Positions 3,497-22,106 of a stretch of 24,000 bases of DNA are shown here, piece after piece. Source of the stretch: an uncultured Mycobacterium sp. (GTDB lineage Bacteria > Actinomycetota > Actinomycetes > Mycobacteriales > Mycobacteriaceae). Every line of letters starts with the position of its first letter. Position 1 is the stretch's first letter. The DNA is taken from NCBI GenBank assembly GCA_964344085.1, contig CAYFMA010000024.1:16896-40895 (forward strand), given 5' to 3'. Position numbers and translations under genes: made by a program. The notes under the pieces were generated by a model, which was not told where the DNA came from, searched no databases, and saw only the letters and a list, made by a program, of their open reading frames with translations.

Positions 3497-4780
3497 ATGT
3501 CCTGGATCAGCGACAAGCTGCGTAAGCCGGTGCCGCCGGCGCTGGCGCCGCCGGGCAGCTACGACCCGGCCGATGTGGCCGACATGCTGCGCGAGATCGG
3601 CGTCGCCATGGTGGAGACCTCCCAGCCCGTCCAGGTGGTCGAGCAGCGTCTGCTGCAGATCGGCGCCCGCTACACCACCGAGACCGTGCAGGCGGCCGTG
3701 CTGCCCACCATGCTGCTGATCCAGATCGGCACCTCCGCCTATCAGATGGAGACCTCCGTCCAGAGCTCCGGGCAGATGAACATGGCGGGCAAGACCGACG
3801 AGATCCTCAACCTGGCCGCCGCCGGCGCGATCACCCCGAAGGATGCCGTCGAGGCGGTGCGTGCCGCCCGGAATCTGCCACCGCGGTTCGGGCCGTGGAC
3901 CACCACGCTGGGCTACGCGTTGACCTCGGTCGGCTTCGGCATGGTGATCGACCCGTCCTGGAAGGGTCTGCTGGCGCATCTGTTCCTCGGTCTGGTTGTC
4001 GGCCTCATCGTGCAGATCGCCCGGCCGTATCCGAACATGGCGCCGATCCTGCCCACCTTCGCGGCGGTCGTCGTCACCCTGCTGGCCACCTGGTTCGTCG
4101 CCGACGTCGCCGAGAGCGGACTGTTGCGGGTGATCACCCCGGCGCTGATCGCGACCCTGCCGGGTATGACGCTGGTGATCGGCAGCATCGAATTGGCCGG
4201 CGGCAGAATCATTTCCGGCGCGAGTCGCACGATCTACGGGCTCGCCCAGATGGGTCTGCTGATCTACGGCGTGGTGCTCGGTATCCGCATCGCCGGTGAG
4301 ATCCCGCCGCTGGCGCCGCAGCCGGTTCTGGGGCCGTGGACGGTCTACGCGTCGATCCCGGTGATCGCCGTCGGGCTCTACATCTATCTGTCCGCGCCCA
4401 AGCGCTCGTTCTTCTGGCTGCTGCTGACCATCGCGGTGGCCACCCTGACCCAGACCTTCGCCGGGGAGGCGCTCAACATCGGCCACTCCGGCTTCATCGC
4501 CGCCATGGTGGCGATCCCGTTCGCCGTACTGAGCTCTCAGATCAAGGGCGCCCCACCGGCCACCGTGCTGACCCTGGCCGCGTTCTGGTCACTGGTGCCC
4601 GGGCAGCTGACGTTCATGTCGCTGGGACGGACGGCCGCCGGCGATCTGACGAGCCTGGCCAACCTGAGCGTGGCCGGGGCCGCCATCATCTCGATCGCCC
4701 TCGGTGCGCTGGTGGGCTGGACGATCGTGCGCACGGTGAGCAGGACGCCGCAACGCCCGGTCTCCCCGTCATTGATTTAG
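3497..4780 (+). CDS. Threonine/serine exporter (ThrE) family membrane protein
   Basis: An N-terminal soluble-like region (DVADMLREIGVAMVETSQPV...) is followed by about 10 hydrophobic helices. This two-part architecture is typical of ThrE (DUF1212 + DUF3815) proteins. Confidence 0.7.
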   Translation: MSWISDKLRKPVPPALAPPGSYDPADVADMLREIGVAMVETSQPVQVVEQRLLQIGARYTTETVQAAVLPTMLLIQIGTSAYQMETSVQSSGQMNMAGKTDEILNLAAAGAITPKDAVEAVRAARNLPPRFGPWTTTLGYALTSVGFGMVIDPSWKGLLAHLFLGLVVGLIVQIARPYPNMAPILPTFAAVVVTLLATWFVADVAESGLLRVITPALIATLPGMTLVIGSIELAGGRIISGASRTIYGLAQMGLLIYGVVLGIRIAGEIPPLAPQPVLGPWTVYASIPVIAVGLYIYLSAPKRSFFWLLLTIAVATLTQTFAGEALNIGHSGFIAAMVAIPFAVLSSQIKGAPPATVLTLAAFWSLVPGQLTFMSLGRTAAGDLTSLANLSVAGAAIISIALGALVGWTIVRTVSRTPQRPVSPSLI

Positions 4781-13522: not shown

Positions 13523-13786
13523 ATGAACGAGACCATGAAACGACTCTTCGTCGCCGGTGTCCTCGCCGGGTTCGCCGTCCTCGGAGTGGGAGTCGGGGCT
13601 TCGGCGACGGCCGCCGCCAGTGACATGAACATCAATGCCACCGGAGGCTCGGGAACAGCCGTCGACAAGGACGGAACCCAGGGCGATATCAAGCCCGCCG
13701 TCCAGGGGGCCCCGGACGACGACAACGACCAGGACGCCTGGCTGCACGGATCCCCGGACTTCACGCCGCAGTACAAGGCCAAATAG
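13523..13786 (+). CDS. Small secreted protein (87 aa, acidic mature region), immediately upstream of the CuMMO genes on the same strand
   Basis: Signal peptide MKRLFVAGVLAGFAVLGVGVGASATAAA. ATG at 13523 lies 7 nt after a TACGTT box. The ATG at 13535 is an alternative start. Confidence 0.6.
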   Translation: MNETMKRLFVAGVLAGFAVLGVGVGASATAAASDMNINATGGSGTAVDKDGTQGDIKPAVQGAPDDDNDQDAWLHGSPDFTPQYKAK

Positions 13787-13793
13787 CCGACTC

Positions 13794-13841
13794 GCCGAAT
13801 ATTCCGATCAGGCCGAATATCTAGACACTTGCAACTGCAAG
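13794..13841 (+). promoter_or_regulatory. Repeat/palindrome cluster upstream of hmoC (possible operator region)
   Basis: Direct repeat GCCGAATAT at 13794-13802 and 13812-13820. Palindrome CTTGCA-AC-TGCAAG at 13828-13841. The region is locally AT-enriched in an otherwise GC-rich window. Confidence 0.3.
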
Positions 13842-13886
13842 GGGTTGAATGTCAAGAACATCTCACTTGATGGAAGGCCTGCAGCT

Positions 13887-14717
13887 ATGACAACCATGGA
13901 CGTCCGGCACGACGCCGCCAAAGCCTCCGGCGCCGCCACCAAGAAGAAGAAGTGGGGCCCGGTCGCCCAGGGCGGGTCACTGTGGACCTGGGCCGTCGCG
14001 ATGGCCCCGATCGTCGCGATCTTCATCGGTTGGCGCACCTACCAGCAGGTTTTCGCCTTCGAGTACGGTCTTGACGCGCACAGCGCCGGGTTCAACAAGT
14101 ACTGGCTGACCCTGGCCCTGGTGAACATGACGGTGCTGCCGGCCATCGCCGGCGCCTGGTACGTCTGGATGTGGTTCTCCGGCCAGAAGCTGAACAAGCA
14201 GCCCAGCCGTGAAGAGGAGAGCCGCCGGATCTGGAACCTGTGGCTGATCATCCTGTCCTTCACCACCGCCGTGTTCGGCGCGGCGAGCTACTGCGCCGAG
14301 CAGGACGCCTCGTGGCACCAGATCGTCACCCGCGACACCGCCTTCACCCCGAGCCACGACGTGCTGTTCTACGGCTCGTTCCCGGTGCTGATCTACCTGG
14401 CCGTCGGCGCCTTCATCTACGCCCGCACCCGGCTGCCGCACCTGTTCGGCGGCAAGATGGTTCCGGTGTCCTTCGCCCTGATCATCGGCGGCACCGTGCT
14501 GCTGCTGTTCCAGGTCGCGATGAACGAGTTCGGCCACTCCTTCTTCCAGGCCGAGGAACTGTTCGCCGCTCCGCTGCACTGGCCGTTCGTGCTGTTCGGT
14601 TACCTGCTCGCCGGAACCTTCGCGGTGTGGTTCGCCACCGTGCCCCGTGTCGCTGAGCTGGCCCGCCAGGAGCGGCAGATGGCTGAGACCCCGGAGCTCG
14701 ACGCCGCGAACGCATGA
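13887..14717 (+). CDS. hmoC: Copper membrane monooxygenase subunit C (AmoC/PmoC family; hydrocarbon monooxygenase HmoC-type)
   Basis: AEQDASWHQIVTRDTAFTPSH gives D140-x3-H144-x12-H157. NEFGHSFFQAEELFAAPLH gives N213-x3-H217-x13-H231. These match the spacing of the two PmoC metal sites. ATG at 13887 is preceded by SD GGAAGG. The track ORF start at 13635 was rejected. Confidence 0.9.
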   Translation: MTTMDVRHDAAKASGAATKKKKWGPVAQGGSLWTWAVAMAPIVAIFIGWRTYQQVFAFEYGLDAHSAGFNKYWLTLALVNMTVLPAIAGAWYVWMWFSGQKLNKQPSREEESRRIWNLWLIILSFTTAVFGAASYCAEQDASWHQIVTRDTAFTPSHDVLFYGSFPVLIYLAVGAFIYARTRLPHLFGGKMVPVSFALIIGGTVLLLFQVAMNEFGHSFFQAEELFAAPLHWPFVLFGYLLAGTFAVWFATVPRVAELARQERQMAETPELDAANA

Positions 14718-15493
14718 CCGCCTCGGAAACCGCGGCACTCGAGGAGGCAGGACCGCCCTCGAAGCCGCTACTGAGTCGACGCTGGGATTTCCTGTTCATC
14801 TTCGCGGCCATGTTTCTGGTCATGGGCGCGTTCCACGTCAACCAGATGCTGTTCTCCGGTGACTGGTCGTTCTGGGCGGACTGGAAGGACCGGGAGTTCT
14901 GGCCACTGGTCACTCCCGCCGTCGGCATGATCGTGGTGGCCGCACTGCAGTACATCACCTGGTCTCTGCTGCGGCTTCCGGTCGGAGCGACCTTCGGTGC
15001 GGTGGTCCTGATGCCTGCCCAGTGGCTGTCGCGATGGGGCAGCTTCTCGGAATGGACGCACATTCCGCTGAACTTCACCTGGCCGGAGACCTTCGTCCTG
15101 GCTGCGGTGATCCTCGACGTCGTGCTGGCGGTCACCCGCAGCTACATCCTCACGTCGATGATCGGCGGCATGCTGTGGGGAGCGGTGTTCTGGTTCTTCA
15201 ACTTCACCGGTCTGTCGCCGTACCTGGCGCCGGTGGACTTCCACGGCACCCTGCTCACCGTCGCCGACACCATCTCCTTCCACGCGGCGCGCACCCAGAC
15301 TCCGGAATACCTGCGCATCATCGAGGAGGGCCACCTCAAGGCACTCGTCAGTGACATCACCATCGTGGTGGCCTTCTTCGCCGGCATGCTGTCGGTGGCG
15401 GCGTACTGGATCGGTCTTCTGATCGGCAAGTACCTCGCGGTCTGGCCGATCGGCAAGTTCTTCAAGCTGCAGACCGATTCGGCCGTCAAGTGA
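14714..15493 (+). CDS. hmoA: Copper membrane monooxygenase subunit A (AmoA/PmoA family; HmoA-type)
   Basis: Hallmark GDWSFWADWKDREFWP and QTPEYLRIIEEG align by eye along the whole length with PmoA. ATGA overlap with hmoC. Confidence 0.9.
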   Translation: MTASETAALEEAGPPSKPLLSRRWDFLFIFAAMFLVMGAFHVNQMLFSGDWSFWADWKDREFWPLVTPAVGMIVVAALQYITWSLLRLPVGATFGAVVLMPAQWLSRWGSFSEWTHIPLNFTWPETFVLAAVILDVVLAVTRSYILTSMIGGMLWGAVFWFFNFTGLSPYLAPVDFHGTLLTVADTISFHAARTQTPEYLRIIEEGHLKALVSDITIVVAFFAGMLSVAAYWIGLLIGKYLAVWPIGKFFKLQTDSAVK

Positions 15494-16704
15494 TTCGCCG
15501 TCTGTTCCCGCTGTTCGCGGTCGTCGGGCTGCTCATGCTGATGGCCCCGCCGCCAATCGCCTCGGCGCACGGAGAGCAGGGGCAACAGGCCTTCGAGCGC
15601 ACCTCCACGGTGCTCTTCTACGACGTCAAGTTCTCCACCACGACCGTCGACATCAATGCGCCGCTGACCATCACCGGCACGGTGCGGGTGATGAACTCCT
15701 GGCCCGACCACACCATCGGCCCGCCGGAACTGGGCTACCTGACCGTCAACGAGCCCGGTCCGGTGCTCTCGGTTCAGGAGCGCTGGATGTCGGGGATGTT
15801 CACCCCGCAGTCGGTCAATCTGACCAAGGGTGGGATCTATCCGTTCAAGCTCGTCCTCAAGGGACGGGTACCGGGCACCTGGCACGTGCACCCGGCACTG
15901 GCCGTCAAGGGCACCGGCACCCTGATGGGACCGGGACAGTGGGTGACGGTCAACGACGCCGGCGGTCCGTTCACCGAACCGCAGCAGCTCTCCGACGGCA
16001 GTGTCGTCGACCTCGCGCACTACGGCCTGAAACGGGTCGCGTGGTGGCACATCATCTCCTTCCTGTTCGGCGCCGGTTACGTCTGGTACTGGTTGCGGCA
16101 GAACTCGTTGAATCGCCTGCTGGTGGTCAACGCGGGTGACGGCGCGACCCTGGTGACCAAACAGGAGCGCCGGGTCAGCGTCCTGTTCGCCATCGGAGCG
16201 CTGGCGCTGGGCATCGGCGGCTTCGTCTACGCCACCGTCTCCGACGGCCCGCACATCCCGTTGCAGGTGGCCCGGGTGACCCCGGTGCCGGAACTGCCCA
16301 ACGCACTGGGCGCCGGGCTGAACACCACCGTGCAGAAGGCAGTCTTCGGCGATAAGACCGGCAAGCTCGACCTGTCGGTGAAGGTCACCAACAACACCGA
16401 TCAGCCGGTGACGTTCGACCATCTGCAGTTCGCCGATTACATCGTCGCCAGCCCCGACGCGGTCGAGCAGGTGCCGGTCGAGCAGCGGGCGACCGTCACG
16501 CCGTCGGGTGCGATCCCGCCGAAGCAGACCCGGGAGATGACCATCAGCCTGGATGCGCGCGCGTTGCGCAGCCAGAACCTGTTGCCGCTCAACGACGCTC
16601 AGATCCGGCTCACCGGTCTGATGTTCTTCCGGGACGCCAAGGGCCAGACCTCGGCCACCGAGATCAACGAACTGACCTCCGGCATCCTGCCGCAGTACGG
16701 ATAA
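15490..16704 (+). CDS. hmoB: Copper membrane monooxygenase subunit B (AmoB/PmoB family; HmoB-type)
   Basis: Signal peptide ends ASA|HGEQ, so the mature N-terminal residue is His27. WHVHP supplies H132/H134. Two internal TM helices separate two beta-rich domains. GTGA overlap with hmoA. Confidence 0.9.
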   Translation: MIRRLFPLFAVVGLLMLMAPPPIASAHGEQGQQAFERTSTVLFYDVKFSTTTVDINAPLTITGTVRVMNSWPDHTIGPPELGYLTVNEPGPVLSVQERWMSGMFTPQSVNLTKGGIYPFKLVLKGRVPGTWHVHPALAVKGTGTLMGPGQWVTVNDAGGPFTEPQQLSDGSVVDLAHYGLKRVAWWHIISFLFGAGYVWYWLRQNSLNRLLVVNAGDGATLVTKQERRVSVLFAIGALALGIGGFVYATVSDGPHIPLQVARVTPVPELPNALGAGLNTTVQKAVFGDKTGKLDLSVKVTNNTDQPVTFDHLQFADYIVASPDAVEQVPVEQRATVTPSGAIPPKQTREMTISLDARALRSQNLLPLNDAQIRLTGLMFFRDAKGQTSATEINELTSGILPQYG

Positions 16705-16709
16705 CGGCC

Positions 16710-16880
16710 ATGACCACCACCATCCTTGCCCACGGCGGTCAGATCACCGGCGATGAGATGGCGCTGATCGGTGGCGGGCTGTTCTTCGCGATGGCCTTCC
16801 CGGCGGTGGCCCTGGTGATCGCCATGCGTCGCGGCCGGCGGCACCAGAACGCGAATCAGACCGATGAGGCGAGTGTGTGA
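16710..16880 (+). CDS. Single-pass membrane micro-protein (56 aa), not in the supplied ORF track
   Basis: ATG lies 5 nt after the hmoB stop. Translation is MTTTILAHGGQITGDEMALIGGGLFFAMAFPAVALVIAMRRGRRHQNANQTDEASV. It has one TM helix followed by RRGRRH (positive-inside rule) and high-GC3 codons. Confidence 0.6.
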   Translation: MTTTILAHGGQITGDEMALIGGGLFFAMAFPAVALVIAMRRGRRHQNANQTDEASV

Positions 16881-16893
16881 AGGGGCGCTGCAG

Positions 16894-17097
16894 ATGAACT
16901 ACACGGTTCTGGCGATGACGCTGGCGATCCTCGTGCTCGCGGTGTTTCTGCCGTTGTCGGCGATCGCCTTCATCATGATCAAGTCCACCTCCTCCAGTGA
17001 CGATTTCAGCCTTGGTGCAGTGAGTCTTCAAGACGAGTTGCATAATTTCCTGGCTGAATTCGAGAGCGGTTCGCATACCGCCGACAACTGGAGATGA
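16894..17097 (+). CDS. Single-pass membrane micro-protein (67 aa) with an acidic C-terminal region
   Basis: ATG at 16894 is preceded by SD AAGGGG (16880-16885). N-terminal TM is MNYTVLAMTLAILVLAVFLPLSAIAFIMI. It ends 1 nt before the next gene. The C-terminal half has unusually low GC3, so the call is tentative. The track start at 16864 is less likely. Confidence 0.45.
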   Translation: MNYTVLAMTLAILVLAVFLPLSAIAFIMIKSTSSSDDFSLGAVSLQDELHNFLAEFESGSHTADNWR

Positions 17098-17098
17098 T

Positions 17099-17539
17099 GT
17101 GTCGATCAAATACGCCGGCGCTGCGGCGTCGGTCGTGGCTCTGGCCGCGCTGACCGCGGGATGCTCGGCCAAGACGGCCACGACCACGGCGTCATCTGCA
17201 TCGCCGGCGGCCTCCAGTGCGGTGTCATCGGTGGCTCCGTCGGCGTCCTCATCGGCTTCGTCGGTCCCCACGCCCGTCGGCCTGACCATCCCGGTCACCA
17301 TCGTCAAGGGTGTGGTCACTCCGGCCAACGGCGAGTACGAGGCCACCGTCGGCGAGCGGATCGAGTTCGACGTCGACAGCGACGCCGCCGACGAACTGCA
17401 TGTGCACGCGGTGCCCGAGCATGAGTTCGCGGTGAAGCCCGGCAGCCAGAGCTTCAGCTTCGTCGTGAAGGTGCCCGGTCAGGTGGTCGTCGAATTGCAC
17501 AGCACCGACAAGACGGTGGCCACACTGACGGTGCGGTGA
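17099..17539 (+). CDS. Lipoprotein with a Ser/Ala/Thr/Pro linker and a C-terminal cupredoxin-like beta-sandwich domain bearing four His (no Cys or Met)
   Basis: Lipobox LTAGC. A long S/A/T/P-rich linker. Domain pattern GERIEFDVDSDAADELHVHAVPEHEFAVKPG...PGQVVVELHS resembles cupredoxin-fold strand patterns. GTG start is preceded by SD GGAG. Confidence 0.8.
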   Translation: MSIKYAGAAASVVALAALTAGCSAKTATTTASSASPAASSAVSSVAPSASSSASSVPTPVGLTIPVTIVKGVVTPANGEYEATVGERIEFDVDSDAADELHVHAVPEHEFAVKPGSQSFSFVVKVPGQVVVELHSTDKTVATLTVR

Positions 17540-18822
17540 CATCCCCCGCGAGCTTCCCCCGGCACGGTCTGGGCGGCAGCGCCGATCTGCCGATCCCGTT
17601 CACCTACACGGTGGTCGCAGCGGCATGGGCGCTGAGCTTCTCGTTCGTCATCCTGATCTTCGCCTGGCGCACACCGCGGCTGCGCGCGGATTCACCGGGG
17701 CTCGCGCTGCCGTCATGGGTCAACGCCTTCGCGTCCTCGCCGGTGACCCGCCGGATACTGGCCGCGCTCGGCCTGGCCTTCACCGCGTGGGTCGCCATGG
17801 CCGGTTTCCTCGGGCCGGCCAAGTCGAGCCAGAACGCACTGCCCGCAACGGTTTACGTGCTGCTGTGGGTCGGGCTGGTGGCGCTGTCGCTGATCTTCGG
17901 ACCGGTGTGGAAACTGATCTCGCCGGTGCGGGCCACCCATCCCGGTCCCGGGCGCAGGACCTATCCGCAGCGGTGGGGTTACTGGCCGGGTGTCATCGGC
18001 CTCTTCGCGTTCGCCTGGATGGAACTGGCCTCGCCGGATCCGGGATCGGTTCGTGCGCTGCTGATCTGGTGCTGCGTCTATCTCGCCGTCACCTCGCTCG
18101 GCGCCGCGGTCTACGGCAGCCGCTGGTGTGAGAGCGGCGATCCGTTCGAGGTCTACAGCACGCTGGTCTCGCACCTGTCGTTCGTGGGCCCGGGCGCACG
18201 TTCGGGGACCTGGGTGCTGCGCAACCCGCTGAACAATCTGCAGCGCGTCGATGTCCGCGCCGGGTCGGTGGCGCTGACCGCAACACTGCTCGGCTCAACG
18301 GCGTTCGACAGTTTCTCGGCACGGCCGGGCTGGCATCGCTGGGTCGACTCGGTCGCGCATTCTCCGGTGCAGGCCACCGGTATCCGCACCATCGGCCTAC
18401 TGGCGATGATCGCACTGGTCGGCGGATCGTTCTGGCTCGCAACCCGAGCGGTACCAGGCCTGCAAGCCGCGCAGCGCCGCGCACTGCCCGGCCTGATGTC
18501 CCCGTCGCTGGTGCCGATCATCGTCGGCTATGTGTTCGCGCACTACATCTCCTATCTGCTGGAGAAGGGTCAGGTGGCGGTCCGGTTGCTGCTCGGCATG
18601 GACCCGGGCGACGTCAACTACTTCCTGTCCAACCACCCCACCCTGCTGGCCACGCTCAAGGTGCTGTTCGTGCTCACCGGGCACGTGCTGGGGGTGATGG
18701 CAGCCCACGACCGCTCCCTGCGGGTACTGCCGGCGCGCCGGCAACTCACCGGGCAGTTGCCGCTGCTGATGGTGATGGTGCTCTTCACCTGCGGCGGCCT
18801 CTTCCTGCTTTTCGCGGGGTAG
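17536..18822 (+). CDS. Polytopic (about 10 TM) integral membrane protein of unknown function
   Basis: GTGA overlap with the preceding lipoprotein gene. N-terminal HGLGGSADLPIP motif, about ten hydrophobic segments, a GDPFEVYS loop, and TM-embedded GHVLGVMAAHD. Confidence 0.85.
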   Translation: MTSPASFPRHGLGGSADLPIPFTYTVVAAAWALSFSFVILIFAWRTPRLRADSPGLALPSWVNAFASSPVTRRILAALGLAFTAWVAMAGFLGPAKSSQNALPATVYVLLWVGLVALSLIFGPVWKLISPVRATHPGPGRRTYPQRWGYWPGVIGLFAFAWMELASPDPGSVRALLIWCCVYLAVTSLGAAVYGSRWCESGDPFEVYSTLVSHLSFVGPGARSGTWVLRNPLNNLQRVDVRAGSVALTATLLGSTAFDSFSARPGWHRWVDSVAHSPVQATGIRTIGLLAMIALVGGSFWLATRAVPGLQAAQRRALPGLMSPSLVPIIVGYVFAHYISYLLEKGQVAVRLLLGMDPGDVNYFLSNHPTLLATLKVLFVLTGHVLGVMAAHDRSLRVLPARRQLTGQLPLLMVMVLFTCGGLFLLFAG

Positions 18823-18831
18823 CGTTGACTG

Positions 18832-19347
18832 ATGCGGGTATCACGGCTTCTCCCGGCGGTCGCGGCGGTGCTGGCCGTGACGCTGGGCGGATGTGCCAGC
18901 GACGCGAAGGGGAGTGGCCCGGAGATGACAGACAGCGGCCTGCCGCCGACCGCGACGGTGGTCTACCACTTCCAGGACTCGTCGGTGCCCCCGCCGTACC
19001 ACCGCAGCTACACCCTGAACTTCGACCGCAATCAGGTGCACATCGTGGTGGACAGCTACGGCGACGTGCTGGCCGACCGGACCGCCCCCATGACCGACGC
19101 GGCCTGGACCACGGTGTCCAGCAATTACGCGTCGATCCGCAATGTCACCGTGCGTCAGCCGCCCGAGGGTTGCGTCGGCGGGACAGGCTTCGCGCTGACG
19201 GTGAACGACGCGGGCGCGACGGTCTTCTCGTTGCAGGCCTCGGTGTGCGGCGGGGTGAACTCGGATGCCTCCCGCCGGGTGCGGGACTGGGTGCAACCGG
19301 TGCGCACGCTGCTGCCCTCGCTGGACGAGATGGCCCCCGGCGGCTAA
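18832..19347 (+). CDS. Lipoprotein of unknown function (171 aa)
   Basis: Signal peptide with lipobox TLGGC. The mature domain has two Cys (EGCVGG, SVCGG). It starts 9 nt after the membrane protein stop. Confidence 0.8.
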   Translation: MRVSRLLPAVAAVLAVTLGGCASDAKGSGPEMTDSGLPPTATVVYHFQDSSVPPPYHRSYTLNFDRNQVHIVVDSYGDVLADRTAPMTDAAWTTVSSNYASIRNVTVRQPPEGCVGGTGFALTVNDAGATVFSLQASVCGGVNSDASRRVRDWVQPVRTLLPSLDEMAPGG

Positions 19348-20108
19348 CCGCGGGGCATCTTCTCCCAGGCGTTGTGGCCGACGAACAGCGCGGCGACGAT
19401 CAGCAGCGCGGCGGTGATCCAGCGTCCGTGCACCTTCATGATCCGCTCGTAGCCATCCTTGATCCGCTCGGTGGATCCGGGCTTGACGACGTCGATGACG
19501 GCCGGCAACACCGCGGGGATCACTGAGATCACCGCGAACACCACGATGCCCAAGACGCGTTCCGGGCGCGAGGTGATCTGCAGGATCTGATGGCCTGCGG
19601 CGATGGCGATGGGGAACACCTTGGGATGCAGCCCGCACATCGCGAAGCCCGCTGTTGCGGCCCGCGCGACGCGATGGCGAGCCGGCAGGTCGGCTCCGGG
19701 CTGCCAGGCCCCGGCGACCTTCGGCAGGTGTTCGCGGACCCAAGTCCTCGTCTTGCCGGGCGTATGGCTCTTCTCCGAAGGATCGGGAATCGGCTTGTGC
19801 CGCATCGCATTGACGGCGCGGGTCAGCCCGATCGCCAGCAACACCGCGGCGATGACGGCACGGACGATGAACCCGGGCCAGCTGTCCGGGTGGACGGCTG
19901 CGGTCTCGTCGGAGCCCGAGGCCCGGGCGATCCACAGGCCGATTCCGGTGGCGAAGGCGATGCCGACGATGCCGCCGGCGCCGTATGCGATGGCGGCCAG
20001 TCGGGGCACCTTCTGGTCACCGGCGACCACCAGTCCCACCACAAGGGTCTCCGGACTGAAGAAGATGGCGAATGCCAGCGAGGCGACGACCGCGAGATGC
20101 TCGCTCAT
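19344..20108 (-). CDS. Integral membrane protein, probably GAP/Sap (sulfolipid-addressing-protein-like) family
   Basis: Six hydrophobic segments with a central charged loop. The N-terminal FSPETLVVGLVV...AYGAGG pattern resembles that family, but the family assignment is weak. It starts 4 nt after the upstream gene's stop. Confidence 0.7.
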   Translation of the reverse strand: MSEHLAVVASLAFAIFFSPETLVVGLVVAGDQKVPRLAAIAYGAGGIVGIAFATGIGLWIARASGSDETAAVHPDSWPGFIVRAVIAAVLLAIGLTRAVNAMRHKPIPDPSEKSHTPGKTRTWVREHLPKVAGAWQPGADLPARHRVARAATAGFAMCGLHPKVFPIAIAAGHQILQITSRPERVLGIVVFAVISVIPAVLPAVIDVVKPGSTERIKDGYERIMKVHGRWITAALLIVAALFVGHNAWEKMPRG

Positions 20109-20678: not shown

Positions 20679-22106
20679 ATGGTCAGTACCCCCGCCGCAC
20701 GCCGCCACCGGGTGGTCATCATCGGATCCGGGTTCGGCGGCCTCAACGCCGCCAAGGCCCTCAAGCGGGCCGACGTCGACGTCACCCTGGTCGCCAAGAC
20801 CACCAGCCATCTGTTCCAGCCGCTGCTCTACCAGCTGGCCACCGGCATCCTCTCAGCCGGCGATATCGCGCCCACCACCCGTCTCATCCTCAAGAAGAAC
20901 CGGAACTGCAAGGTACTGCTCGGCGATGTCGAGGACATCGACCTGGCCAACGGGACGGTCACCTCGAAGCTGATGTCGATGGAGACCGTACTGCCGTTCG
21001 ACAGCCTGATCGTGGCGGCCGGCGCCCAGCAGAACTACTTCGGCCACGAGGAGTTCGCCACCTTCGCCCCCGGCATGAAGACCATCGACGACGCCCTGGA
21101 GTTGCGCGGCCGGATCCTCGGCGCGTTCGAGGCGGCCGAGGTGACAACCGATCCCGCGGAGCGGGCACGCCGGCTGACGTTCGTCATCGTCGGCGGTGGA
21201 CCGACCGGTGTGGAACTCGCGGGTCAGATCGCCGAACTGGCCCGGCGCACCCTGCCGGGTGCGTTCCGCACCATCGACCCGACCGAGTGCCGGGTGCTGC
21301 TGTTCGACGGGTCACCGTTCGTGCTGTCGCCGATGGGCGAGAAGCTCGGCATGAAGGCCACTCAGCGGCTGGAGAAGATGGGGGTGGAGATCTTCCCCGG
21401 CACCACGGTCACCAACGTGGACTACATGGGGATCACCTACAAGGACAAGCAGACCGGCGTCGAGACCCGCGTCGAGTGCGCCTGCAAGGTGTGGTCGGCC
21501 GGCGTCTCGGCGAGCCCGTTGGGGGAGATGATCGCCGCCCAGTGCGAGGGCACCGAGGTGGACCGGTCCGGACGCGTCGTCGTCGAACCGGATCTCACCG
21601 TCAAGGGGTACCCGAACGTCTTCGTCGTCGGTGACATGGCCGCAGTGCCGGGCGTTCCCGGGGTGGCGCAGGGCGCCATCCAGGGCGCGAAATATGCGGC
21701 GAAGACGATCAAGCGGATGACGCAGGGCACCGACGACCCGGCGGCCCGGGAGCCGTTCAAGTACTGGGACAAGGGCTCGATGGCCACCATCTCGCGCCAC
21801 CATGCGGTGGCCAAGGTCGGCAAGTTCGAGTTCAGCGGCTTCTTCGCCTGGCTCGCCTGGCTTTTCCTGCACCTGCTCTACCTGGTGGGCTTCAAGAACC
21901 GCATCAGCACACTGCTGAGCTGGACGCTGACCTTCACCTCCAACGGCCGCGGTCAGCTGGCCACCACCAGCCAGTGGGTCTACGGCCGGCTGGCCATCGA
22001 CATCGTCGAGAAACAGTTGGAGGAGGCCATCGACGACGCCGAGGAGCGGGCCGACGCCGTCGACGTCTCGCTGGGTGCGGCACTGAGCCGCGAGCATCAG
22101 CGCTAG
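20679..22106 (+). CDS. ndh: Type II NADH dehydrogenase (NDH-2)
   Basis: RVVIIGSGFGGLNAAKAL (first Rossmann GxGxxG), LFQPLLYQLATG, VIVGGGPTGVELAG (second GxGxxG), and a C-terminal amphipathic membrane-anchor region. Confidence 0.9.
   Translation: MVSTPAARRHRVVIIGSGFGGLNAAKALKRADVDVTLVAKTTSHLFQPLLYQLATGILSAGDIAPTTRLILKKNRNCKVLLGDVEDIDLANGTVTSKLMSMETVLPFDSLIVAAGAQQNYFGHEEFATFAPGMKTIDDALELRGRILGAFEAAEVTTDPAERARRLTFVIVGGGPTGVELAGQIAELARRTLPGAFRTIDPTECRVLLFDGSPFVLSPMGEKLGMKATQRLEKMGVEIFPGTTVTNVDYMGITYKDKQTGVETRVECACKVWSAGVSASPLGEMIAAQCEGTEVDRSGRVVVEPDLTVKGYPNVFVVGDMAAVPGVPGVAQGAIQGAKYAAKTIKRMTQGTDDPAAREPFKYWDKGSMATISRHHAVAKVGKFEFSGFFAWLAWLFLHLLYLVGFKNRISTLLSWTLTFTSNGRGQLATTSQWVYGRLAIDIVEKQLEEAIDDAEERADAVDVSLGAALSREHQR

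Follow-up and report, generated by a model that had tools for sequence, protein, structure and literature searches.

Two conserved single-pass micro-proteins encoded directly after xmoB, candidate accessory components of actinobacterial copper membrane monooxygenases

A stretch of 24,000 nt of DNA from an uncultured Mycobacterium sp. (contig CAYFMA010000024.1; hereafter the window, numbered from its first letter) carries on its plus strand an operon for a copper-dependent membrane monooxygenase (CuMMO), whose genes xmoC, xmoA and xmoB were recognised with Pfam and NCBIfam. Two small open reading frames (ORFs) are encoded in this operon directly after xmoB: ORF1 (16710-16880, plus strand) specifies a single-pass micro-protein of 56 aa, and ORF2 (16894-17097, plus strand) one of 67 aa with an acidic amphipathic tail. 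Comparison with related loci indicates that both are genuine protein-coding genes. We propose that their products are dedicated accessory components of the CuMMO, most likely supernumerary subunits present in stoichiometric amounts, and we hold this proposal with moderate confidence.

CuMMOs oxidise methane, ammonia and short alkanes, and the composition of the active enzyme is still debated. Since 2023, small extra subunits have been found in the archaeal ammonia monooxygenase (AMO), in the bacterial particulate methane monooxygenase (pMMO) and in the bacterial AMO. Isolated CuMMOs lose activity, and recombinant expression has been achieved essentially only for the mycobacterial hydrocarbon monooxygenase (HMO) (review PMC13058606). 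ORF1 and ORF2 add two candidates, encoded in the operon itself, from the only CuMMO lineage open to ready genetic work; ORF1 occurs in all Actinomycetota operons sampled and its histidine is invariant, so that the need for small partners can be tested directly.

Coding status of the interval behind xmoB

The interval between xmoB and the next gene (16705-17098) measures 394 nt, and the two ORFs fill it. The xmoB stop codon ends at 16704 and the ATG of ORF1 lies at 16710, leaving a gap of 5 nt; gaps of 13 nt and 1 nt follow ORF1 and ORF2, respectively, the next gene starting with a GTG at 17099. A 4-nt overlap of the two ORFs is frequent in relatives. An earlier reading, made from the window's sequence only, had remarked that a 394-bp gap would otherwise sit inside a tight operon. 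It had described ORF1 as a protein of 56 aa that starts 5 nt past hmoB and has a histidine at position 8, one transmembrane (TM) helix and the cluster RRGRRH, and ORF2 as a protein of 67 aa that follows 13 nt later, with an AAGGGG element, a TM helix, an acidic tail and a 1-nt gap to the next gene. All of these features were recovered in the sequence, as was the atypically low GC content at third codon positions (GC3) which this reading had raised as a caveat on the 3' half of ORF2 (0.53, against 0.94 in the 5' half). When the interval was scanned for Rfam families, terminators and promoters, no Rfam element, no convincing terminator and nothing else meaningful appeared.

Chance ORFs of such size are frequent in DNA of 67% GC, and the mechanical ORF list for the window is rich in spurious ones. 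The comparative data nevertheless set ORF1 and ORF2 apart. In a collection of 5.8 billion proteins, ORF1 has 16 homologous protein clusters (61 to 86% identity, with matching starts and conserved length), and ORF2 likewise has 16 (67 to 85% identity, with conserved length). These homologues carry no functional name and no Pfam domain, the few source names being 'hypothetical protein'. Differences from the window sequence are concentrated at third codon positions: they number 132, 90 and 219 at positions 1, 2 and 3 in a codon alignment of ORF1 from nine loci, and 63, 45 and 113 in one of ORF2 from six loci. The pairwise ratio of non-synonymous to synonymous substitution rates (dN/dS) is mostly 0.2 to 0.5 for both; for the core of ORF1 (residues 1-45) its median is 0.26 (range 0.10 to 0.64), and for ORF2 it lies at 0.16 to 0.48. 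Moreover, the GC3 profile by frame shifts from the frame of xmoB to that of ORF1 and then to that of ORF2 at the matching places. Because the homologues are conserved, the differences show third-position bias, dN/dS is low and the position in the operon is fixed, both ORFs stand above what chance would produce. An antisense ORF of 200 aa across the same region (16744-17346) was rejected as a shadow ORF, with a GC3 of 0.63 and boundaries that shift between loci.

Scans of ORF1, ORF2 and their homologues in M. chubuense NBB4 against Pfam and NCBIfam found no family, the sub-cut-off matches being those expected by chance (DUF5693, DHFR_1). Among 1.84 billion representative proteins, the ORF1 profile retrieved 24 clusters at E<=0.001, 20 of which are small proteins (49-134 aa) with the motif LAHGG[QKER]-h-[TSG]-x-DE-h-A and a TM helix. 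As far as profile searches can tell, the ORF1 family is small, specialised and narrow.

Distribution and architecture of the two micro-proteins

A profile built from 16 XmoB sequences led to 16 Actinomycetota genome loci, of which one (L009) ends inside xmoB and was left out. An ORF1-type single-TM gene directly follows xmoB in all 15 testable loci, 0-80 nt behind its stop codon (the offset over all loci compared with the window being -3 to +95 nt), so that the conserved ORF which the sequence-only reading had proposed to look for behind xmoB in other actinobacterial CuMMO loci is indeed present. The lineages concerned are Mycobacteriaceae (among them ENV421, M. sphagni ENV482, Bu41, Mycobacterium sp. 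SM1), Smaragdicoccus, Nocardiaceae, Micromonosporaceae, Propionibacteriales, Egibacteraceae and unclassified Actinomycetota. The gene is also found on three plasmids, M. chubuense NBB4 pMYCCH.01 and those of Rhodococcus sp. WAY2 and M. dioxanotrophicus PH-06, where it is annotated as 'hypothetical protein'; the NBB4 counterparts are WP_014805759.1 (71 aa) for ORF1 and WP_041783847.1 (114 aa) for ORF2. A motif scan in six frames ([LFMIV]AH.G followed by a hydrophobic 17-mer) over 22 sequences totalling 282,383 nt gave exactly one match in each of 21 sequences, always after xmoB and on the plus strand, and none elsewhere. The 22nd sequence, from Propionibacteriales (L020), has the variant AMHMGALHG in the same position.

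ORF2 is distributed more narrowly. Matches to its profile are restricted to Mycobacterium/Rhodococcus-type loci, and within these it follows ORF1 in 12 of 12 distinct Mycobacteriales-type loci, or 9 once near-copies are set aside. Profile E-values range from 1.6e-8 to 2.5e-13 in ENV421, NBB4, SM1 and Bu41, and are 4.8e-16 in WAY2 and 6.7e-7 in PH-06. On the WAY2 plasmid pRWAY02, the homologue has 108 aa (L025 6581-6907), and its GTG start and the ORF1 stop share 4 nt; the PLSDB gene table of that record does not list it. The two ORFs had been treated as a pair in the sequence-only reading, and this holds in so far as both are conserved genes; ORF1, however, occurs throughout the Actinomycetota CuMMO operons sampled and has an invariant histidine, whereas ORF2 is clade-specific. 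Both families offer new annotation markers for genes that gene tables at present omit or list as 'hypothetical protein'.

What follows the micro-proteins varies by clade. The order xmoC-xmoA-xmoB-ORF1-ORF2-lipoprotein-8TM protein is shared by six metagenome lineages related to the window, so that in the clade of the window a lipoprotein and a protein of eight TM helices come next. The downstream gene encodes an AMP-binding protein in NBB4, ENV421, SM1 and WAY2, and a DUF4242 protein in PH-06. In an Egibacteraceae metagenome-assembled genome (MAG; L021 4793-5344) and an unclassified Actinomycetota MAG (L022 7704-8303), ORF2 itself is replaced by a protein of 183-199 aa with about four TM helices. 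Since the downstream genes change from clade to clade while the ORFs stay, the micro-proteins belong with xmoCAB and not with the genes behind them.

The translation of ORF1 is MTTTILAHGGQITGDEMALIGGGLFFAMAFPAVALVIAMRRGRRHQNANQTDEASV, with the stop codon at 16878-16880; beside the translation, the 16 homologues and the profile matches after xmoB, a GC3 of 0.84 marks it as a gene. Its N-terminal motif LAHGGQITGDE (residues 6-16; 16725-16757, plus strand), defined by alignments and by the motif scan, is non-helical in the AlphaFold2 (AF2) model. The predicted TM helix comprises residues ~18-39 (16761-16826, plus strand; Kyte-Doolittle peak 2.29, and AF2) and contains the conserved G22, G23, A27 and P31, the last three of which, small residues four apart (G23, A27, P31), may form a helix-packing face. 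Behind it lies the basic cluster RRGRRH (residues 40-45; 16827-16844, plus strand), assumed to be cytoplasmic by the positive-inside rule. AF2 returned a coil at residues 1-13 and one helix at 14-53, with a predicted local distance difference test (pLDDT) score >90 in mid-helix; the cytoplasmic tail is variable, acidic and modelled with low confidence.

Over 16 diverse actinobacterial sequences of the ORF1 type, H8 and G10 are the sole invariant residues, and A7 and the arginine after the helix are nearly so. The Mycobacteriales type is invariant at L6, A7, H8, G9, G10, T13, D15, E16, G22, G23, A27, P31, R40, R41 and R44, and versions from Micromonosporaceae have a second histidine (AH[AS]G[DE]FHP). 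By these alignments, ORF1 defines an unnamed family, of which it is itself a fitting member, with an [L/F/M]AHxG motif, a TM helix within ~20 residues and basic residues thereafter. In each of the eight lineages checked (8/8), lysine and arginine number 0 on the N-terminal side of the helix and 2-5 on the C-terminal side. Because these residues lie solely C-terminal of the helix, the positive-inside rule predicts that ORF1 is oriented N-out/C-in, with the histidine motif on the outer face of the membrane, the face on which the soluble XmoB domains lie in pMMO structures.

ORF2 (MNYTV...DDFSLGAVSLQDELHNFLAEFESGSHTADNWR; stop codon 17095-17097) is preceded by a Shine-Dalgarno-like AAGGGG (16880-16885, plus strand), read from the sequence 8 nt ahead of the ATG at 16894; its first base doubles as the final one of the ORF1 stop codon. 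In the mechanical ORF list, ORF2 appears as a version of 77 aa that starts at 16864, but 15 of the 16 homologues begin at MNYTV, and we therefore take the 67-aa start as correct. Homologues outside the clade of the window have N- and C-terminal extensions and reach 108-115 aa. The predicted TM helix (residues ~4-29; 16903-16980, plus strand) is placed by hydropathy, alignment and the AF2 model, in which a short linker joins a helix at 3-34 to a second one at 42-59 (17017-17070, plus strand). This second helix lies in the motif LG-x-VSL-x-DE-h-xx-F-h-xx-h-E-x-G and is moderately amphipathic, its hydrophobic moment exceeding that of shuffled sequences (P<0.05) in three of five lineages. Ten sequences, with identity down to 28%, share P20, A25, L40, G41, L45, E48, F52, E57 and G59. 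An N-out/C-in orientation is weakly predicted.

The GC3 of ORF2 falls from 0.94 in its 5' half to 0.53 over its last 34 codons (16996-17097), where GC is 0.50 in a window of 67% GC and the encoded peptide is highly conserved. The stretch GACGAGTTGCATAATTTCCTGGCTGA in the 3' end is common to four of the six aligned loci (window, L002, L027 and L029). Low GC3 is partly present in close relatives (0.57-0.77) and absent in L031 (0.87). An overlapping element under this half was considered and rejected, given that synonymous divergence is at least as high as in the 5' half and that L031 lacks the low GC3. The anomaly is thus real but harmless, and we found no explanation for it beyond lineage-specific codon choice.

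A proposed role in the monooxygenase, and its alternatives

The narrow gaps of 5, 13 and 1 nt, the 4-nt overlaps in relatives and the lack of a convincing terminator or Rfam element in the interval suggest that the two ORFs are co-transcribed and translationally coupled with xmoCAB. Under the proposal that the two micro-proteins are accessory subunits, both would insert N-out/C-in and pack against the transmembrane core of the enzyme. The short non-helical N-terminal segment of ORF1 would then lie on the outer face, near the soluble domains of HmoB and the copper sites. There, LAHGGxhTxDE, with its invariant histidine followed by acidic residues, may contact a copper site or help to load it, while the Gly/Ala/Pro-rich TM helix may dock on HmoC or HmoB. 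ORF2 would add, in Mycobacterium/Rhodococcus-type operons only, a second TM helix and an acidic amphipathic cytoplasmic helix, which could rest on the surface of the membrane or bind a partner in the cytoplasm. The sequence-only reading had suggested a stabilising subunit or an assembly factor, and in favour of that suggestion the ORFs are coding, co-oriented with xmoCAB, tightly packed and single-pass, and are present where the CuMMO genes are. Because the two ORFs go with the CuMMO genes and not with the changing set of genes behind them, their profile is that of a dedicated subunit or assembly factor.

Small accessory chains are an established theme in this enzyme class, and ORF1 and ORF2 appear to fit it by functional analogy. 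Tucci & Rosenzweig 2024 (PMC11725843) describe supernumerary helices seen in native membranes: that of the pMMO of Methylocystis sp. Rockwell is a protein of 23 residues, that of N. europaea AMO an unannotated ORF of 46 residues, and such helices are proposed to matter for activity or for array formation. Like these helices, ORF1 and ORF2 are very small single-TM proteins, unannotated or 'hypothetical', that accompany a CuMMO; unlike them, ORF1 has a histidine motif outside the membrane. Both candidates are encoded in the operon, immediately behind xmoB.

In archaea, AmoX, AmoY and AmoZ (= AmoD/F/G) and AmoE are small, have 1-3 TM helices and are conserved and syntenic with amo; they were first proposed as accessory proteins of AMO and then observed as extra subunits, and are said to make up for helices missing in archaeal AmoB and AmoC (PMC10030591; 10.64898/2026.08.31.748207). 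AmoX, AmoY and AmoZ are reported to be exclusive to ammonia-oxidising archaea (PMC10030591). The actinobacterial core enzyme, by contrast, looks complete, HmoB showing two hydrophobic stretches in its translation and HmoC being of full length, so the micro-proteins look like additions and not like stand-ins for missing helices; the likeness to the archaeal subunits is one of description.

For bacterial AMO, a preprint (10.64898/2026.08.31.748207) names AmoD and AmoE as components of the structure, besides further archaeal subunits. PmoD/AmoD, which lie beside CuMMO operons and have a one-helix membrane anchor, are described in copper homeostasis (PMC10030591). ORF1 and ORF2 differ from PmoD, AmoD and AmoE in having just ~13-18 and ~3 residues outside the membrane, respectively, no folded domain and no Pfam match. 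In PmoD, a signal peptide is followed by a folded cupredoxin-like domain in the periplasm and an anchor at the C-terminus. Outside the CuMMOs, cytochrome bd and KdpFABC are stabilised by CydX and KdpF, single-TM peptides of 30-60 aa whose genes lie in the operon beside the catalytic ones; these enzymes and sequences are unrelated to ours, and the likeness is an analogy only.

Profiles of ORF1 and ORF2 were searched against all PDB chains of at least 20 residues (hmmsearch, E<=10), a set which holds the XmoB chains of 9CL5, 9CL6 and 9LEG, entries tied in papers to extra helices or to AmoD/AmoE. Chance matches alone were returned (PsaM, FXYD6, PD-L2, parvalbumin). The sequence-only reading had seen in the micro-proteins a possible equivalent of the unassigned pMMO helix and of the small archaeal subunits, and this survives as a functional analogy only, with no match to a PDB chain at the sequence level.

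Several points weigh against a subunit role. In these PDB searches, neither ORF resembles any known CuMMO accessory chain, and the entries searched include no structure of an actinobacterial HMO or butane monooxygenase (BMO). A factor acting transiently in assembly or metal delivery would fit the operon linkage no less well. The topology is derived solely from the positive-inside rule, a weak guide for ORF2 with its 1-3 Lys/Arg. Outside Mycobacteriales, most actinobacterial lineages lack ORF2, which therefore is not essential to the enzyme class. One histidine with carboxylates makes a weak copper site by itself, and the peptide ahead of that histidine is too short for a Sec signal peptide and has no consistent signal-peptidase site. 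No in-frame start exists upstream of ORF1, leaving just 7 residues ahead of His8, and the corresponding peptides of other actinobacterial versions have 4-18 residues, contain no Lys or Arg and are inconsistent at -3 and -1. In histidine-brace copper proteins (the CuB site of PmoB, CopC, lytic polysaccharide monooxygenases), the histidine is the residue at the mature N-terminus. Because ORF1 has no Sec-like signal peptide and no consistent cleavage site, its histidine is not predicted to form such a brace.

Three alternatives to a subunit role are considered. The micro-proteins may be dedicated but transient biogenesis factors, ORF1 acting as an anchored copper hand-over peptide and ORF2 as an insertion or assembly helper, with neither retained in the mature complex; we regard this as possible, though not probable. 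Their linkage to the operon would be identical under this scenario and under the subunit model. Moreover, ORF1 keeps H8, D15 and E16, with a second histidine in Micromonosporaceae, and a role of PmoD/AmoD in copper homeostasis has been described (PMC10030591). Two neighbours in the clade of the window, a lipoprotein with the sequence HVHAVPEHEF and the 8-TM protein, whose N-terminus resembles the ORF1 motif, also hint at a metal-handling module. On the other hand, G23, A27 and P31 of ORF1 and the invariant P20 and A25 of ORF2 suggest stable packing between helices, and the tight translational coupling suggests that the micro-proteins are made in amounts near those of subunits. In addition, a gene for a protein resembling ORF1, found in soil metagenomes and described below, sits between xmoA and xmoB, within the block of structural genes.

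Alternatively, the two may be small membrane proteins that work near the enzyme and not in it, in the organisation of the membrane or of arrays, in regulation or sensing, or in protection from reactive products. Such a role could account for the variable, acidic tail of ORF1 and its low model confidence, and ORF2 could attract a partner through its cytoplasmic helix; Tucci & Rosenzweig (PMC11725843) also raise array formation as a possible function of supernumerary helices. However, neither protein has a DNA-binding or signalling domain, the ORF1 family occurs solely next to xmoB, and the best-conserved part of ORF1 is its extracytoplasmic motif and not its tail. We therefore consider this scenario quite unlikely.

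Finally, the notion that the ORFs are spurious, or are leader peptides or upstream ORFs of the downstream genes in an intergenic spacer, could appeal to their common size at 67% GC and to the GC3 of 0.53 in the 3' half of ORF2, but is effectively excluded by the comparative data: protein conservation extends down to ~25-45% identity across families with conserved starts and stops, dN/dS is below 1 with third-position bias, synonymous divergence is not lowered in the 3' half of ORF2, the ORFs persist while the downstream genes change, and no Rfam match or convincing terminator was found in the interval.

A similar gene in soil metagenomes, and the surroundings of the operon

Distant relatives of XmoB (33-36% identity) led to operons from non-actinobacterial soil metagenomes ordered xmoC-xmoA-x-xmoB. 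The x-type gene (L033 3645-3902; L035 3680-3919; L034 ~3670-3990, uncalled; also L036-L115) encodes a protein of 79-85 aa with a signal peptide ending in AxA, the motif HGG[IM]AGPDELGPP, a TM helix and a basic tail. Scanning metagenomes brought up 130 relatives, and 80 loci were kept: xmoA lies directly upstream in 79 of these, the remaining contig being too short, and xmoB lies directly downstream wherever the contig extends. In 62 unique sequences, alanine occupies position -1 in 62/62 and position -3 in 59/62, and no variation occurs at H1, G2, G3, A5, G6, P7 and D8. Should cleavage take place at AxA, histidine would be the first residue of the mature protein, whose N-terminus would read HGGIAGPDELGPP. 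In PmoB, too, a copper-binding histidine (His33) opens the mature subunit; a mature N-terminal histidine, as in histidine-brace proteins, is thus predicted for the x-type protein and not for ORF1. At one locus of 81 (L117 3001-4734; P0130, 577 aa), the x-type protein and XmoB are joined in one continuous ORF in which the XmoB signal peptide is kept internally, which may reflect a real fusion, a lost stop codon or a sequencing error.

Two x-type proteins scanned against Pfam and NCBIfam gave no family. Binatota operons of the CAxB and CAxxB type, with a hypothetical gene 'x' that was left unanalysed, have been reported (Murphy et al. 2021, PMC8262859); beyond that remark, we found no paper on ORF1, ORF2 or related small hmo/bmo/xmo genes in the literature searched, although a passing mention elsewhere is possible.

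The x-type protein and ORF1 are alike in their motifs (AHGGIAGPDEL and AHGGQITGDEM, that is, AHGG-x4-DE), in having a TM helix and a basic tail, and in being encoded by a small gene of an xmo operon. They differ in two respects: ORF1 lacks the canonical signal peptide of the x-type protein, and its gene does not lie between xmoA and xmoB. Alignment of the two profiles with hhalign gave P = 0.0028-0.0039 and a probability of 8-11%, and a hidden Markov model of the 62 x-type sequences scores ORF1 at E ~2-9, within noise. The likeness, marked as it is, lacks secure statistical support, and a common origin is suggested only as a possibility.

A bolder version of the subunit proposal would make ORF1 and the x-type protein one ancient family, that of a fourth, copper-binding subunit in the hydrocarbon-type CuMMOs of actinobacteria and in related ones from soil, with a true N-terminal histidine in the x-type after signal-peptide cleavage; its outer histidine/carboxylate motif would complete or load the XmoB/XmoC copper site and be required for activity. 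We regard this as doubtful. Were it true, the minimal functional unit of these enzymes would not be xmoCAB, and equivalent small partners might be the ingredient missing in failed heterologous expression of pMMO and AMO. For comparison, a proteobacterial operon of the order amoA-amoB-amoC on a Methylomagnum plasmid, which we take to be pxmABC-like, has gaps of 15 and 40 nt and no small ORF; it is a single example.

The core genes themselves all lie on the plus strand of the window. They are xmoC/hmoC (CuMMO subunit C; 13887-14717; Pfam AmoC, E=4.8e-55), xmoA/hmoA (subunit A; 14714-15493; Pfam AMO, E=4.3e-63) and xmoB/hmoB (subunit B; 15490-16704; Pfam Monooxygenase_B, E=1.9e-94). The start of xmoC is that of the gene call on the source contig, which includes the window (L001; ENA contig ERZ9869192 NODE_122) and gives a protein of 276 aa. 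The mechanical ORF reaches back to 13635, adding 84 codons (13635-13886) for a total of 360 aa; the shorter start is favoured because the Pfam AmoC match begins only at residue 119 of the long form. XmoB of the window is 63% identical to that of M. chubuense NBB4 and 53% identical to that of Mycobacterium sp. SM1. Inspection of its translation by eye shows ...IASA|HGEQ and WHVHP, and ASA|HGE with HVH presumably represents the CuB ligand pattern. In XmoC, the spacings D-x3-H-x12-H and N-x3-H-x13-H were likewise found by eye, and presumably represent the CuC and CuD ligand patterns.

Just upstream of xmoC (13523-13786, plus strand; GC3 0.83) is a gene for a conserved secreted protein of 84-90 aa, with homologues at L002 6563-6835, L027 2652-2924 and L029 2558-2812. 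A signal peptide is followed by DMNINATGG[SA]GT.VDKDGTQG...DNDQDAWLH...PQ[YF]KAK. Downstream of ORF2, predicted lipoproteins of 146 aa (17099-17539) and 171 aa (18832-19347) flank the 8-TM gene (17536-18822; 428 aa, ~8 TM helices). In the first, the lipobox LTAGC and a linker rich in Ser and Ala precede a small domain with HVHAVPEHEF, which might bind metal. Neither lipoprotein has a Pfam family or a PDB relative, and the 8-TM protein has no Pfam or PDB match. The 8-TM gene is also present in L002, L008, L027, L029 and L031, and is confined to the clade of the window; ahead of its first TM helix, the encoded protein has a conserved (Q/R/A)HGLGGS[AT]DLPIPF (VLAHGLGGS in L031) that echoes the LAHGG of ORF1. 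Further along lie a SfLAP-family membrane protein gene (19344-20108, minus strand) and a type-2 NADH dehydrogenase-like gene (20679-22106, plus strand; Pyr_redox_2, NDH2_C). Both are also found near the CuMMO cluster in L002 and L029, and relatives insert a P450 gene beside the cluster.

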